Source: Pseudomonadota bacterium (lineage in GTDB: Archaea > Thermoplasmatota > SW-10-69-26 > JACQPN01 > JAJPHT01). Taken from it: DNA of 10,578 nucleotides. The DNA is taken from the NCBI GenBank assembly GCA_021325135.1, contig JAJPHT010000041.1:1-10578 (forward strand), given 5' to 3'. Under the pieces are notes generated by a model. It did not search any database, was not told where the DNA came from, and worked only from the letters and a program-made list of their open reading frames with translations. The position numbers and the translations under genes were made by a program. This document shows positions 4,342 through 10,578 of this stretch, one piece after another (the first letter of the stretch is position 1; each line of letters begins with the position of its first letter).

Positions 4342-4477
4342 GAACGAAACCCAACGATGGGGCGGATTGGCATGGCGCGCGAGGCCCGCCCCAGGGGAAA
4401 ACCGGGTCGAACCTAGTAGCTCACTAGTCCATGGATCAAACTCATATGGGCGAGTGCCCATGCGATTCCCGGGCACA

Positions 4478-5170
4478 ATGGGCTTTACGGAAGTCGTCTA
4501 CAAGATCCGGAGCGATCTCTATCCGCTCTGCACCTACACCGAGGCGCACCCCGACGTGAAGGCCGTCGTCAACCAGACCTCCTGGGACGACGACACCGGG
4601 CAGGGCAAGTCGGTGATCACTCTCCTGGGACCCGAGGAGAAGCTCGGGCCCCTCGTCGAGGCGCTCACACCGGTCCACGACCGCATCGAGACGCTGGCGC
4701 AGTCCAAGGAGCAGCTCGTCCTGCGCACGCAGGCGCGGCTGGACACCATGAAGAAGGCGGGCAACCCCGCCGCCTTCTCGCTGGACTACTTCGGCGAGGA
4801 CGCGGTGGCGCAGCCCGCGCTGATGAAGGACGGCTACCTGCACGTCCGCCTCCTCGTCGCGAGCCGCGTCGACCTCGCGGACCTCCTCGCGCACTACGAG
4901 AAGGGCGTGAAGGAGGGGCGCTGGAGCGACTTCAAGCTCATGCGCATCGACGAGTTCGACCCCGAGTCGCAGATCGCCGGCGCGTTCACCGAGAACCTCA
5001 CGCAGAAGCAGCTCGAGGTCATCAAGACCGCCCTCGCGCTGGGCTTCTACAACACCCCGCGTGATATCACGCTGGACGACCTCTCCAACATCTTCGGCAT
5101 CAGCAAGGCCGCGGTCCACAACCGCCTCCAGGCCGCCGAGCGGAAGGTCATCGCGAAGTTCTTCGGCTGA
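4478..5170 (+). CDS. Bacterio-opsin-activator-type (HTH_10) transcriptional regulator (230 aa; alternative start 4460)
   Basis: C-terminal LTQKQLEVIKTALALGFYNTPRDITLDDLSNIFGISKAAVHNRLQAAERKVI fits the HTH_10 consensus. A candidate BRE/TATA (CAAACTCATAT, 4437-4447) favours the 4478 start. Confidence 0.88.
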   Translation: MGFTEVVYKIRSDLYPLCTYTEAHPDVKAVVNQTSWDDDTGQGKSVITLLGPEEKLGPLVEALTPVHDRIETLAQSKEQLVLRTQARLDTMKKAGNPAAFSLDYFGEDAVAQPALMKDGYLHVRLLVASRVDLADLLAHYEKGVKEGRWSDFKLMRIDEFDPESQIAGAFTENLTQKQLEVIKTALALGFYNTPRDITLDDLSNIFGISKAAVHNRLQAAERKVIAKFFG

Positions 5171-5412: not shown

Positions 5413-7125
5413 ATGCGAGCCGCCCACTTCCCCCTCGCCATCGTCCTCGTGCTGCTCGTGTCCGCGTTCGCGCCCACGCTGCCGCACGCCTGGGCCGCCA
5501 GCTCCACCGAGCGCTACACCGTCGAAGGCGCCGTCCTCTCGGACGCGGGCGCGCCCATCGAGGGCGCCAGCGTCAGCGCGTACGTCTCCGACGGCACGTT
5601 CTCCGCCAACGACCAGGCGACGACCGACGCGCACGGCGCGTTCTCGCTCCTGCTGCCCGCGGGCGAGGGGAGCGTCAGCGTGTTCTACGCCAAGTGGCGC
5701 GCCTCGGACGGGCAGCCGATCAAGGTGGGGGGCAACGTGAGCGGGCTCGCGTTCACGCTGAAGACGCCGCCGCCCAAGACGGCCATCGTCTCGGGCCGCG
5801 TGCTCGACGCCAGCGGCGCGCCCGTGGAGGGCGCCACCGTGCGGCTCACGCAGTACTGCTGCGTCGTCTACGACGCGCCCACGCCCGCGAGCCCGCCGCC
5901 CTCCGACGTCGTCCAGAGCGGCTCCGCCTCGGGCGGCTCGGGAACGGCCAGCTCCAGCGTCGCGCGGCCCATCATGCCCGTCTACTACGGCGACGACCCC
6001 GACCCCGTCGTCACCGGCGCGGACGGCGCGTTCACGTTCACCACCTACGCGGGCCCGCATCAGCTCACCGCCGACGCCAAGGGCTTCGCGGAGACCACGG
6101 AGCGCGTGACGCTCGCGGAGAACGAGACGGTGAAGCAGGACGTCACGCTGGAGAAGGTCCCGCCCGCCGACGCCGCGCTGGAGGGCAAGGTCGTCGACGC
6201 CTCGACGGGCAAGCCCATCGAGGGCGCGCAGGTCTACCTCTACAACGCCGCGTGGGGCCGCAGCAACTGGACCACCACCGACGCCACGGGCGCGTTCCGC
6301 GCCCTCACGCTCCCCGGCTGGACGCAGGTCACCGTGAGCGCGGACGCCAACCGCGGCGTCCCCATCGCGATGGACGACGCGACGGCCAAGATCCGCGCGC
6401 CCGACGCGCCCATCCCCGGCGCCTCGTACTACCAGTACGCGCACGTCCTCACGCTAGCCTCCGGCGCCAACGCGCTCACCGTGAAGCTGGAGCCCAAGCC
6501 CCAGCCCGGCGTCGTCCTCGTGGGCTACGTGGTCGACCCCGTCTCCAAGACGGGCGTCCCCAACGCGTACGTCAACGTCTGGAACCAGGACGCAGGCGAG
6601 TGGGGCGGCGCGCAGACCGACGACTCGGGCTCCTACAAGCTCCTCGTGCGCGCGGGCCACTACACCATCAACGCCTACGCCGACGGCTACCTGGGCAGCC
6701 AGGAGTCGTTCGTCATCCCTGACGGGGAAGCGCAGCACCGCATGGACGTCCAGGTCCTCAAGGGGCAGACCCGCTACTCGCCCTGCGACGACTGCTACCC
6801 CGGGCCCATCATGTACGAGAAGGGCATGGCCGCCGGCGCGCCCACCAGCGCGGTCGCCCCCGCGCCGCCCGCGGGCGCCGAGAGCGCGCCCGCCCGCGAC
6901 GCCAGCGCGCCCGCGGGCGCGACGAGCACCGCCTCCAACGCGCCGCAGACGCCCACCGGCGTCCAGGCCTACAGCGGCAGCGGCGGCGGGCTGGGCCCGT
7001 ACCACGCCGACGCCGCCGGCGCGCAGACCCAGGCGCCCGCCCCCGGCAAGGCCGTGCCCGCGCCTGCGGTCGTGCTGGTCGTGGGCACCCTGGCCCTGCT
7101 CGCCCTCGCGCTGAGGCGGCGCTGA
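5413..7125 (+). CDS. Secreted cell-surface protein with four carboxypeptidase-regulatory-like (CarboxypepD_reg) repeats and a PGF-CTERM-like sorting tail (570 aa)
   Basis: Signal peptide MRAAHFPLAIVLVLLVSAFAPTLPHAWA. Four repeats of G.V.D..G.P[IV].[GN]A.V...T..[DH]G.[FY]. An Ala/Pro/Thr/Ser linker is followed by VPAP, a hydrophobic helix and terminal RRR. TATA-like CTTAT at 5377-5381. Confidence 0.85.
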   Translation: MRAAHFPLAIVLVLLVSAFAPTLPHAWAASSTERYTVEGAVLSDAGAPIEGASVSAYVSDGTFSANDQATTDAHGAFSLLLPAGEGSVSVFYAKWRASDGQPIKVGGNVSGLAFTLKTPPPKTAIVSGRVLDASGAPVEGATVRLTQYCCVVYDAPTPASPPPSDVVQSGSASGGSGTASSSVARPIMPVYYGDDPDPVVTGADGAFTFTTYAGPHQLTADAKGFAETTERVTLAENETVKQDVTLEKVPPADAALEGKVVDASTGKPIEGAQVYLYNAAWGRSNWTTTDATGAFRALTLPGWTQVTVSADANRGVPIAMDDATAKIRAPDAPIPGASYYQYAHVLTLASGANALTVKLEPKPQPGVVLVGYVVDPVSKTGVPNAYVNVWNQDAGEWGGAQTDDSGSYKLLVRAGHYTINAYADGYLGSQESFVIPDGEAQHRMDVQVLKGQTRYSPCDDCYPGPIMYEKGMAAGAPTSAVAPAPPAGAESAPARDASAPAGATSTASNAPQTPTGVQAYSGSGGGLGPYHADAAGAQTQAPAPGKAVPAPAVVLVVGTLALLALALRRR

Positions 7126-7340: not shown

Positions 7341-7703
7341 CTAGGAGATGAGGGGGAACGACACCATGTTCTCCAGCGCCGAGCCGGTGCTGTTGACCTG
7401 CTCGTAGCTGGGCGGCTGGACGGGCAGGTTGCACAGCGAGGGGATGATGAAGGCGCCCAGCGTCATGCCGGAGCCCACGTCCTCCTGGAAGGCCACGCCG
7501 ATCACGTCCTCCGCCAGGTAGGGGTACACCAGGAGCGGGCCGCCCCAGTTGGCCGTCATGAGGTTGATGCAGCCCTCGTCGCCCGGCTCGCCCGACCCGA
7601 GGCTGGGCGGGGTGACGGGGGGGTCGGCCGTCGAGAATGGCATCGCGAGGGCCATGGAGACGGCTGCGAGAAGAAGGACCGCGATGCGACTGACGACGGC
7701 CAC
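7341..7703 (-). CDS. Small secreted hypothetical protein (120 aa, GTG start, two Cys)
   Basis: GTG at 7703 with GAGG 7 nt upstream and TATA-like CTTATC (7741-7746, minus). Signal peptide MAVVSRIAVLLLAAVSMALAMPFSTA, then a Pro/Gly linker and a domain bracketed by two Cys (GCINL...SLCNL). No C-terminal anchor. Confidence 0.7.
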   Translation of the reverse strand: MAVVSRIAVLLLAAVSMALAMPFSTADPPVTPPSLGSGEPGDEGCINLMTANWGGPLLVYPYLAEDVIGVAFQEDVGSGMTLGAFIIPSLCNLPVQPPSYEQVNSTGSALENMVSFPLIS

Positions 7704-7740
7704 GTCGATGCCTCGGGCCCCACAAGCGCCGTCCCGCTGT

Positions 7741-7818
7741 GATAAGGCTTGTCGTGCCCGACGCGACCGGGGGAAACGCCACGTTTCCCCGGCGAAGTCC
7801 TTGGACGACAAAGTATAT
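7741..7818. promoter_or_regulatory. Symmetric bidirectional promoter with a central palindromic operator
   Basis: Minus strand: ACGACAA-GC-CTTATC. Plus strand: ACGACAA-A-GTATAT. Central GGGGAAACG-CCA-CGTTTCCCC (7770-7790). TTGTCGT (7749-7755), ACGACAA (7805-7811) and the palindrome are all centred on 7780. Confidence 0.7.
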
Positions 7819-7845
7819 CTCGGCCCGGACGGAAGTGCGCGCGGC

Positions 7846-9453
7846 ATGGTCCCCGTCCGCGTCGCCCTCGGCGTCCTTCTTGTCGCCGTCGTCGCGGCCC
7901 CCCTCGTCGCGGCAGCGCCGGCCAGCGGAGGGCTTGACGCGCAGGGGATCCTCCACCTGGCGGGGCCCCTGGTCGCGGACGCGAAGTCCGGCGACCTCGT
8001 CTGGAACTCCACCCGGGCCCCCGACCTCGCGCTCGCGGGCGAGGGCATCCACCTGGAGCGGATCGGCACCACGCGGACCGTCCAGCCGACGCCGGTGGGC
8101 GACGTCGTCATGGGCAACGCCAACGTGGACGACACCGTGGACGTCGCCTCGGGCCGCATCACCTTCTCCACGGGCGAAGGCCAGCAGGTCGTGGCGCTCC
8201 AGGACCTCGGCGCGCTCCACCTCACGGGCGCGCAGGCCGACGTGCGACCCGTCGCGGGCGCGCGCCTGGCCTCCATCAGCCTCACCCAGCAGAGGGACGG
8301 CTTCTCCTGCGACATCCAGCAGAAGTGCCTCGCCACCCTGGGCACGTACCAGATGGACGGCGCCGCGGGGACGCTGGAAGGCGCGCTGGCGATCTTCGTG
8401 CGCGGGCCCGCGGTCCACGTGGTCGACGCCTCGGGGAGCGAGCGCGTCTTCGGCTCGGGCCAGACCTCCACGACCACCACCACGGGAGCCCAGCGCGACG
8501 ACACCTGGGTCCTCCTCACCATCCAGAAGGCGACGGGCTCCTTCTCGGCCGCCCCCCACGCGGCCTACCTCGCGGCGCCCTCGCTCCAGGGCACGGCGGC
8601 TTCGCTGGACGCCGCCACCGGTGCCCTCTCCGTGGGCGGCAAGGCCTACCGGGCCCACGACGAGGCGGTCGAGGCCGCAGGTGCGCTGCGCATCGCCCTC
8701 GCGCCCCTGGCCCCCGGCGACTTCAAGGCCGCGGGAGAGGTCGTCTACGCCTCGGGGTTCCACGCGGACGTCGCGGGCGACGTCACGCGCATCAACCTCC
8801 ACGAGGCGCCCGTCTTCGAGCAGCCCGTCGCGCAGGCGGTTGGCATCGCGGCCCTGGTCACCGCGGCCGTGGCGAGCGCCGCGGCCTACTACTGGCCCCT
8901 TCTCTCCTTCCACCTCGCGGCGCTCGGGGCGCCCCTCTACACGCGGCTGAGGCAGCCGGAGATCCTCGACAACGACGTGAGGAACCGCATCTACGACATC
9001 ATCCGCGCGAACCCGGGCATCAGCGCCCGCGCCGTGCACCGCGAGAGCGAGCAGAGCTGGGGCACCGTCGTCTACCACCTGCGCCAGCTGGAGCGGCACA
9101 ACCTCGTCGTGAGCCGCACCATGGGCCGCACGCGCAACTACTACGAGAACCACGGGAAGTACAAGGGCATGGAGGCCCAGCTCGCGTGCCTCCAGGCGCC
9201 GCGCGCGCTCACGCTGGCCCGCGTGATCCTGGACAACCCCGGCGCGACGCAGGAGCAGCTCGTGGAGAAGTCCGGCTACCCGCAGCCCACGACGTCCTAC
9301 TACGTCCGCAAGCTGCGCAAGGCGGGTCTCATCGACGAGGCGCGGGAAGGGCGCTACGTGCGCTACCTGCCCGCCCAGGACCTCGCGCGCTTTGTCCAGA
9401 CGGCCGATCCCACGCCGCTGGGCAGCCCGACCCCCGCCGGCGTCAACGCGTGA
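7846..9453 (+). CDS. Membrane-anchored transcriptional regulator: signal peptide, ~300-aa extracellular domain, TM segment and two tandem winged HTH domains (COG3398-like; 535 aa)
   Basis: Signal peptide MVPVRVALGVLLVAVVAAPLVAAA. Gly/Thr/Ala-rich, apparently beta-rich ectodomain with CDIQQKC. Hydrophobic AVGIAALVTAAVASAAAYYWPLL...PLYTRL. wHTH1 RNRIYDIIRANPG...WGTVVYHLRQLE; wHTH2 VILDNPGATQEQL...TTSYYVRKLRKAGLI...EGRYVRY. Confidence 0.85.
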   Translation: MVPVRVALGVLLVAVVAAPLVAAAPASGGLDAQGILHLAGPLVADAKSGDLVWNSTRAPDLALAGEGIHLERIGTTRTVQPTPVGDVVMGNANVDDTVDVASGRITFSTGEGQQVVALQDLGALHLTGAQADVRPVAGARLASISLTQQRDGFSCDIQQKCLATLGTYQMDGAAGTLEGALAIFVRGPAVHVVDASGSERVFGSGQTSTTTTTGAQRDDTWVLLTIQKATGSFSAAPHAAYLAAPSLQGTAASLDAATGALSVGGKAYRAHDEAVEAAGALRIALAPLAPGDFKAAGEVVYASGFHADVAGDVTRINLHEAPVFEQPVAQAVGIAALVTAAVASAAAYYWPLLSFHLAALGAPLYTRLRQPEILDNDVRNRIYDIIRANPGISARAVHRESEQSWGTVVYHLRQLERHNLVVSRTMGRTRNYYENHGKYKGMEAQLACLQAPRALTLARVILDNPGATQEQLVEKSGYPQPTTSYYVRKLRKAGLIDEAREGRYVRYLPAQDLARFVQTADPTPLGSPTPAGVNA

Positions 9454-9518
9454 GCGACGCGGGCGCCTCGCGACGGGCATGGCGTTTCTGGCGGCCCCGC
9501 GTTTTGGAGCGTCAGGAG

Positions 9519-9563
9519 GTCACGCGACGGGGCCGCCCGGGGTCACGTGACCGGTCACGTGAC
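9519..9563. repeat. Three copies of the palindromic decamer GTCACGYGAC
   Basis: GTCACGCGAC at 9519-9528; GTCACGTGAC at 9542-9551 and 9554-9563. The last two together form a perfect 22-bp palindrome. Confidence 0.75.
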
Positions 9564-9659
9564 TCCTGATCCCTGCGGGCGTCCTGGCGCGTCCAAGCTT
9601 GGAACCTGACCCGAGGGCAGGCCAAGGCGTCCCGGGCCGGAGGCCGAAGCCGCTCCGGC

Positions 9660-10135
9660 CGAATCTACAAATAGGGGGTGTGAATTGGGGGGCCCTACGC
9701 GCCCGCGCTTCCCTCGTGGAGGCGGGGGCGAAGCGCGCGACCGCGGTTCGATCCGCGACGCGCGAACCGGGGACGGCGAAACCATCAAATATGATGGTGG
9801 CGTACGCGCCCTTCCCGACCCGGGCGACTGGGCGGGCGTCGGGCACCGATCCCGACCTCTGGCGGCCTGGCCGCCATGCGAGACGGACGCGCGAAATCCC
9901 TAAATAGGGGGCGTGCGTACCAGGGTCGCCCCTCCGGCATCTGTCCGGTGGAAGCGGCGATCGGCTCCGGCCGGTCGTGAAGGCCCCGGTGCGCGAAACC
10001 TTCAAATAGGGAGCGTGCATTCGTCGCCTCCTGCCCCCGACCGGGGACAGGCGAGCGCCGCAAGGCGCGATCACGGACCTCAGGTCCGCTGCATCCGGAT
10101 CCTCGAGCCCCCTGGGTTCAGAGAGGATTCAAATA
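9660..10135 (+). promoter_or_regulatory. Five tandem BRE-TATA promoters upstream of the 16S rRNA gene
   Basis: CGAATCTACAAATA (9660-9673), CGAAACCATCAAATA (9777-9791), CGAAATCCCTAAATA (9892-9906), CGAAACCTTCAAATA (9994-10008) and GAGAGGATTCAAATA (10121-10135). The AAATA cores are spaced 118, 115, 102 and 127 bp apart. Confidence 0.8.
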
Positions 10136-10159
10136 CGAGAACCGCGTTCTCGCCCGAGC

Positions 10160-10507
10160 CCTTCGGACCCTGTGCGGGGCCGAGATGGGCGCCACGGACG
10201 CTGACGCGCCGAGCGGCCCTTCGGGCTGCGTTGACAGCGTAGATCCAAGCCGTGGGACAGCGAGTCGCTGACTCGGAAACCATTCATGTGAAGCCGGGAG
10301 AAACCCGATTGCGCGTGGCTTCGGCCGCGTGGCAAGCGTGACCTCTCCACAGCTGAGATTCGAGCCAAGTTGCTACGTGCACAGACCCTAATAGCGAGCA
10401 CAGCGCGCAACGCGCTGATCGCATTACAAGGACAAGGAGCGGACAAGTTCCCTCCCCTGCGAGCACATCGCGCGCAGATGGATGGTGAAACTTGCTTCAC
10501 TCCGCCA
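10160..10507 (+). other. 16S rRNA 5' external transcribed leader (structured)
   Basis: Non-coding, and lower in GC near the gene. It holds several hairpins (GCGGCCC-TTC-GGGCTGC, CGAGTC-GCT-GACTCG, CGCGTGGC-TTCG-GCCGCGTG, CAGCGCG-CAA-CGCGCTG) and a long imperfect stem at 10436-10503 abutting the mature 5' end. The 5' boundary is approximate. Confidence 0.6.

Positions 10508-10578
<71 letters not shown>

Follow-up and report, generated by a model that had tools for sequence, protein, structure and literature searches.

Positions 7341-9453 of the 10,578-nucleotide stretch of contig JAJPHT010000041.1 analysed here (the window; 70% G+C, from a 3.77-Mb Thermoplasmatota genome) comprise two divergent genes that, on sequence and model evidence, make up the fused version, with two genes, of a cassette that recurs in Thermoplasmatota and combines a secreted mini-protein, a single-pass receptor and a tandem winged helix-turn-helix (wHTH) regulator. 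The gene on the (+) strand (7846-9453) encodes a 535-aa protein that, as predicted from its sequence, is a transmembrane transcription regulator with an N-terminal ectodomain and a C-terminal wHTH pair, and the gene on the (-) strand (7341-7703, GTG start) encodes a 120-aa secreted protein with two cysteines; the intergenic region between them (7704-7845) measures 142 bp. The arrangement looks like an undescribed kinase-free route from the cell exterior to a gene switch. Both genes are called by a codon-usage gene caller trained on 699 long open reading frames (ORFs) of the same genome.

The regulator frame is open from 7549 to 9453 on the (+) strand, with ATG 7846 as its best start because homologues share the same methionine and the TATA-like GTATAT at 7813-7818 lies ~30 nt ahead of it; the start at 7819 adopted in the earlier note is less likely. 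From ATG 7846 the chain runs through a signal peptide or signal anchor with an A-x-A type end (7846-7926, residues 1 to ~27), an all-beta ectodomain with a conserved C155-x5-C161 loop (7927-8835, residues 28-330), a transmembrane helix with a conserved juxtamembrane LYTRL motif (8836-8913, residues 331-356), winged helix 1 (8959-9165, residues 372-440) and winged helix 2 (9172-9405, residues 443-520), and closes with a disordered C-terminal tail that ends G-V-N-A before the stop codon (9406-9453). Hydropathy analysis gave two hydrophobic peaks, with window centres at residues 10-21 and 336-340, the peak of residues 331-356 reaching 1.89 (Kyte-Doolittle, 19-residue window). The AlphaFold2 model of the full-length protein, built on a 34-sequence alignment with a predicted local distance difference test score (pLDDT) of 88.6, shows a single unbroken helix across residues 328-361, which places the beginning of the first wHTH domain ~10-15 residues past the membrane. 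Arginine accounts for 11.8% of the cytoplasmic part, the C-terminal 170 residues being Arg-rich, versus 4.3% of the ectodomain, whose ~300 residues are poor in both Arg and Lys; this bias, together with an acidic flank ahead of the transmembrane helix, fits an N-out/C-in topology.

A Pfam search of the regulator assigned PF24266 (HTH_HVO_0163_N) to residues 376-440 (51.3 bits, cut-off 31) and both HTH_24 (52.6 bits, cut-off 21.9) and MarR_2 (40 bits, cut-off 27) to a second wHTH at residues 455-500, and returned no match for the first 370 residues. The protein thus belongs with the PF24266 tandem-wHTH family, in which a domain above the gathering threshold is followed by a second wHTH. Hydropathy, charge, Pfam and the AlphaFold2 model therefore agree with the proposal of the earlier note that one polypeptide joins a signal peptide, a ~300-aa ectodomain with a Cys pair, a transmembrane segment and two cytoplasmic wHTH domains, and the YYWP and GAP motifs that it had pointed out do flank the transmembrane segment. 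Most orthologous regulators retain a G-V-[QN]-A-COOH end (residues 532-535, 9439-9450) after a variable disordered linker, and this conserved C-terminus may act as a signal for docking or for degradation.

Evidence that the window is one instance of a wider system comes from the paralogous loci of the same genome, where hmmsearch (E <= 0.01) found ten ectodomain genes, including that of the window, all ten with a divergent upstream neighbour. Five of the ten carry the wHTH pair as a fusion (the window gene, one on contig C40, two on C30 and one on C21), and the five non-fused genes comprise three with a TPR tail detected by Pfam and two without a Pfam-detected tail. Each of the three TPR-tailed receptors adjoins a gene for a soluble PF24266 tandem-wHTH protein. 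In the clearest of these split loci, on contig C19, the receptor gene is divergent from a small secreted gene, and the soluble regulator is encoded co-directionally with that small gene, 91 nt downstream of it. Both tail types recur beyond this genome: among 90 ectodomain representatives scanned with Pfam, 44 carry a PF24266 + HTH_24 tail and at least 20 a TPR tail. The strongest argument that the ectodomain-transmembrane module would signal via this type of wHTH pair is this alternation of fused and split forms, which also suggests an association of the small gene with the receptor.

The divergent pairing with small secreted genes, on which the earlier note had built its reading, is recurrent. 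It was found at 8 of the 10 ectodomain loci of this genome, where the divergent neighbour is a protein of 84-178 aa with a signal peptide and at least two Cys, and at 10 of 10 orthologous loci with available DNA, where the divergent ORF encodes a small secreted two-Cys protein and the G+C content at third codon positions (GC3) is 0.77-0.96; the pair is kept down to 35% regulator identity (locus L018). The neighbours at the paralogous loci vary and are either FN3-like with a Cys hairpin or Cys-rich with 4-11 Cys. Across the genome, 241 of 3619 called genes (6.7%) encode small secreted Cys proteins. When all membrane-tethered wHTH paralogues were considered, 14 of 27 had such a gene no more than two genes away, relative to ~5.8 expected, and a count of 14 was reached once in 2000 resamples of all genes and three times in 2000 resamples of other large proteins bearing a signal peptide.

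Approximately 40 full-length homologues of the regulator were recovered (41-68% identity, 520-560 aa), all from Thermoplasmatota metagenome-assembled genomes or metagenomes, and an orthologue is present in six of eight genomes of one family and in none of seven genomes from the other families of the order. Near-invariant columns fall mostly within residues 365-510, with winged helix 1 nearly invariant in orthologues. Across the same loci, identity is 20-58% for the ectodomain and 20-33% for the small protein, versus a nearly invariant wHTH pair. The gene tables of all five metagenome contigs gave the same order of a CarboxypepD_reg surface protein (+), a 102-115-aa gene (-) and the regulator (+).

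Fold searches with the full-length model returned only the wHTH domain. The best structural matches of the second wHTH are ArsR/SmtB and MarR repressors (Z 12-13, root-mean-square deviation (rmsd) ~3 Å, 93 residues), with CzrA at Z 13.1 (rmsd 2.8 Å, 93 residues) and SmtB at Z 12.9, and the wing of winged helix 1 (residues 425-440) is modelled at low confidence. The likeness to these repressors lies in the fold of the second domain; they are soluble homodimers, each chain having a single wHTH, whereas here two stand in tandem on a membrane tether. Matches to NCBIfam were confined to near-threshold ArsR-type models, and membership of the ArsR/SmtB metalloregulator family (NF033788) was rejected at 54.1 bits against a cut-off of 55, which leaves a likeness at the level of the fold. 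The tandem-wHTH module occurs in 48-52 copies in the genome, of which 27-29 have a signal peptide, a variable ectodomain of 50-860 aa, a transmembrane segment and the wHTH pair.

The ectodomain modelled alone (residues 24-330) reached a pLDDT of 93.4 and a predicted TM-score of 0.89, and is all-beta with many strands of ~20 residues and with the C-x5-C pair in a low-confidence loop. Cys155 and Cys161 are at least 90% conserved, and a few glycines are also kept. No Pfam or NCBIfam family matched this domain. A Foldseek search of the model against the Protein Data Bank (PDB) gave nothing at E <= 1e-3 (TM-score <= 0.12), its weak rows being secretins, porins and aerolysin-type toxins, all of which have long hairpins; VIA-align, run on 48,161 representative chains, reached Z 3.2 at most, with no chain at Z >= 5, and the sequence profile had 0 matches at E <= 1 among PDB sequences. 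The absence of a PDB match for the model does not prove a new fold. An internal repeat, an idea raised by a long-short-long strand pattern, was rejected at hhalign probabilities below 5%. Searched against 1.84 billion representatives, the ectodomain profile recovered 340 proteins at E <= 1e-3, 51 of them at E <= 1e-10; in almost every case the length is 450-560 aa and the domain is N-terminal, and the ectodomain alone accounts for 340 clusters at 50% identity.

The small secreted protein has a signal peptide of ~26 residues with a conserved Pro22 and an A-x-A type site, invariant Cys45 and Cys91 that lie 46 residues apart, an invariant Pro88 and a P-L-I-S C-terminus, for which orthologues have P-[LIVT]-[LI]-[PS]. 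That this 120-aa two-Cys gene is real, as the earlier note had supposed, is supported by a coding-potential score of 73 from the codon-usage caller (GC3 0.88) and by homologues that keep both cysteines; its profile matches only Thermoplasmatota proteins annotated as hypothetical. In the closest orthologue (locus L013, 1042-1359 (-)), no ATG, GTG or TTG stands at the expected place after GGAGG and the frame opens CTC CTG, pointing to a non-canonical start or to an error in the assembly. An end in -Leu-Pro-COOH was noted in 7 of 10 orthologues of the small protein. This end is found in 59 called proteins of the genome (for example C42:18039-20973, C23:16319-16893 and C40:224910-225164), of which 45 have an N-terminal segment resembling a signal peptide. 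Among small secreted Cys proteins, Leu-Pro is by a wide margin the most frequent final dipeptide (28 of 241, with Leu-Ala second at 9). The -Leu-Pro C-terminus could be a sorting or recognition signal. A hydrophobic-Pro C-terminus was rejected as a mark of receptor partners, as -Leu-Pro ends are common across the small secretome and are not enriched beside regulators (3 of 17 versus 27 of 224, Fisher p = 0.36).

Both genes have promoter elements in the 142-bp intergenic region. On the (-) strand, the small-gene promoter (7741-7755) combines a sequence resembling the B-recognition element (BRE), ACGACAA at 7749-7755, with a TATA-like CTTATC at 7741-7746, and is kept as CAC[GA]ACAAGNYTTATC in most orthologous loci; a Shine-Dalgarno-like CGAGG (7711-7715, GGAGG in orthologues) precedes the GTG by 7 nt. 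On the (+) strand, the regulator promoter (7802-7818) consists of TGGACG overlapping a BRE-like ACGACAA and followed by the TATA-like GTATAT. TGGACG is invariant in eight of eight aligned loci, the pattern GGACG-NN-AA-N2-3-TAT has a single occurrence in the whole genome, and CGGAAG at 7830-7835 is also conserved. Midway between the two promoters lies an exact 9-3-9 palindrome (7770-7790, GGGGAAACG-CCA-CGTTTCCCC), which occurs once in the genome and falls in the variable centre of the intergenic DNA. The k-mers common upstream of small secreted genes were Shine-Dalgarno-like words only.

We propose that the ectodomain would provide the input of this system and the tethered wHTH pair its output, and that the secreted, fast-evolving two-Cys protein would be the cognate extracellular partner of the ectodomain, acting as ligand or co-sensor. 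Occupancy of the ectodomain would then alter the action of the tethered wHTH pair on the shared divergent promoter region, the likeliest site being the conserved TGGACG/BRE-TATA box of the regulator's own gene, which would create an autoregulated loop. For this combined model, in which ectodomain input, wHTH action on the divergent promoter and partnership with the small protein are all assumed from sequence, we consider the chances to be about even. Release of the wHTH part by site-1/site-2 intramembrane proteolysis, in the manner of RseA/RsiV, is possible; at least four PF02163 (S2P) genes are present in the genome, and their presence has no discriminating value because the family was found in 14 of 14 control genomes. 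A stronger version, in which each mini-protein would be the private ligand of its own receptor and the genome would hold about ten orthogonal kinase-free channels, fused or split, appears doubtful on the same evidence.

Several observations weigh against the combined model, and they bear on three other explanations. The 9-3-9 palindrome was rejected as a conserved operator, since it is absent from every orthologous intergenic region; because the TGGACG box is kept where the palindrome is lost, the conserved candidate operator is the promoter-proximal box, and the palindrome may be a local site. The likeliest of these three is that of a tethered sensor-regulator whose ectodomain senses an envelope or environmental cue and for which the small protein is merely a regulated target, perhaps alongside the neighbouring surface protein. 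We regard this as possible, at clearly less than even chances. It would account for a divergent promoter that the two genes share and in which each BRE/TATA box is conserved, for the synteny of the CarboxypepD_reg surface protein, and for neighbours that differ from one another in both sequence and fold class. Homology among the small partners of the paralogous loci was looked for and rejected: the small-protein profile, run against its own genome, found no paralogue and recovered the window's own protein only, so that the partners are alike in class and not in sequence. The C19 locus argues otherwise, as the small gene there stays divergent to the receptor while being co-directional with the soluble regulator, and the constant partner of the small gene is thus the gene that bears the ectodomain and not the wHTH. 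The contrast between two fast-evolving extracellular parts and a nearly frozen wHTH pair likewise fits co-diversifying partners.

It is improbable that the adjacency is only inherited synteny or chance amid many small secreted proteins, with no functional link. The whole region is syntenic among orthologues, with PolB upstream and an FHA protein, a kinase and a cupredoxin downstream, and for this reason pairing among orthologues, taken by itself, argues only weakly for a functional link. Small secreted Cys proteins are moreover very common in this genome, so that some chance adjacency is expected at a background of 6.7%; the figures are approximate, given a crude gene caller and signal-peptide rule and 1453 of 3619 calls shorter than 190 aa. 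A shorter homologue, P0042 (379 aa, locus L004), has no such neighbour. Against this, the divergent arrangement is repeated at eight of ten paralogous loci in unrelated genome positions, far above that background, the resampling seldom reached the observed count (1 and 3 of 2000), and the pair persists to the 35% regulator identity of L018. The notion that the tandem wHTH is a protein- or DNA-tethering module akin to ScpB, anchoring without gene-specific regulation, finds some footing in the tandem-wHTH ScpB structures listed by Foldseek (3w6j_E and 2z99; probability 1.00, TM-score only 0.36-0.37), but is very improbable given the ArsR/SmtB and MarR repressors that best match the second wHTH and given 48-52 paralogues per genome with varied input domains, as is typical of a regulator family and not of a housekeeping tether.

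A membrane one-component regulator in an archaeon is not in itself a new idea, as transmembrane transcription regulators (TTRs) were surveyed by Demey et al. 2023 and the class is already described for archaea (PMC10269533). The regulator falls within the TTR definition of that survey by virtue of a predicted DNA-binding domain and a predicted transmembrane region, and it resembles known TTRs in holding both in one chain, in the single-pass arrangement that is their commonest type, and in its lineage-specific expansion (PMC10269533). The extent of that expansion is different, with ~27 membrane-tethered members of one wHTH family here compared with 4 +/- 2 TTRs in an archaeal genome on average (PMC10269533). 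ArnR and ArnR1 of Sulfolobus acidocaldarius are characterised archaeal examples (PMC10269533); their HTH is N-terminal (PMC13286277), whereas the wHTH pair of the window protein is C-terminal, behind a signal peptide and a large ectodomain that belongs to no described family. Judged by its predicted architecture, the system differs from known TTRs in its reversed domain order, its tandem ArsR/MarR-like output, its undescribed ectodomain, its conserved, divergently transcribed gene for a secreted candidate partner and its large expansion. A keyword search of the literature found no paper on this regulator family, nor on Thermoplasmatota TTRs with secreted Cys proteins.

Two kinds of bacterial system offer parallels in logic. 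In ToxR/ToxS, TcpP/TcpH and VtrA/VtrC of Vibrio, the likeness is one of logic only and consists of a membrane wHTH regulator and an adjacent gene for a small extracytoplasmic protein. Partners of the ToxS/TcpH/VtrC type are membrane-anchored, lipocalin-like and co-transcribed, whereas the small protein of the window is apparently secreted, with a cleavable signal peptide, and divergently transcribed. The Vibrio regulators have an N-terminal cytoplasmic OmpR-type wHTH and an N-in topology, and the cytoplasmic wHTH of CadC is N-terminal too, as opposed to the N-out window protein with its C-terminal wHTH, and a ToxR/ToxS-type architecture was rejected because the domain order is reversed and the wHTH domains are ArsR/MarR-like, not OmpR-type; there is no sequence relationship. 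Co-component partners of this kind inhibit proteolysis or promote dimerisation (PMC10269533). The likeness to SdpC/SdpI/SdpR of Bacillus subtilis resides in the kinase-free combination of a secreted disulfide protein, a membrane transducer and an ArsR-type wHTH encoded together, and it is closest for the split form, with its TPR-tailed receptor and soluble wHTH. SdpI, however, is polytopic and lacks a large ectodomain, whereas the window receptor is single-pass with a ~300-aa ectodomain, and the SdpR model NF033789 scores 29 bits on the regulator against a cut-off of 100. With receptor and regulator in one chain, no sequestration step would be needed, unlike in SdpC/SdpI/SdpR.

Little is known of how archaea detect external conditions and pass the information on to transcription, and the family described here is large and strongly expanded in one soil lineage, with fused and split forms that tie a sensor to a defined wHTH output. 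The window presents a compact circuit, open to direct testing, that comprises two genes and 142 bp of DNA, with a conserved candidate partner gene and conserved promoter boxes. If the private-ligand version were true, the channels would carry self, kin or community protein signals straight to DNA, as an archaeal counterpart of peptide quorum sensing on an ectodomain fold unseen in solved structures.

The upstream neighbour of the pair is a surface protein gene (5413-7125 (+)) that encodes a signal peptide, five CarboxypepD_reg domains, a Ser/Ala/Pro-rich stalk and a C-terminal transmembrane anchor ending RRR. It adjoins the pair in orthologous loci with visible upstream DNA and does not do so at the paralogous loci, and we treat it as context only. 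Directly upstream of it is a gene for an HTH_10 (bat-type) regulator (4454-5170); an HTH_10 gene is also found near the shorter homologue P0042 in L004. Downstream of the regulator, orthologous loci (L003 6977-11572 and contigs) carry genes for an FHA protein (-), a ~198-aa protein, a Ser/Thr protein kinase and cupredoxin-like proteins, and in the window an rRNA operon leader stands in the place of this set.

No protein gene was called in 9454-10578, and the ORFs at 9520-10074 (-) and 10129-10500 (-) were rejected as genes because they have no coding potential and sit in the rRNA leader. Approximately 90 nt past the regulator stop codon, two abutting copies of GGTCACGTGAC (9539-9566) form a 14-nt perfect-type palindrome that may serve as a terminator or a binding site. 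The final part of the window (10509-10578, with ATTCTGGTTGATCCTGCCAG at ~10509) is the 5' end of a 16S rRNA gene. The 1-kb non-coding stretch before it contains four or five tandem promoter-like CGAAA-N4-6-AAATA(G/T)G elements (9660-10140), of which a repeat search placed three at 9662-9686, 9895-9919 and 9997-10021, with similar elements near 9779 and 10125, and the stretch looks like a multi-promoter rRNA leader.

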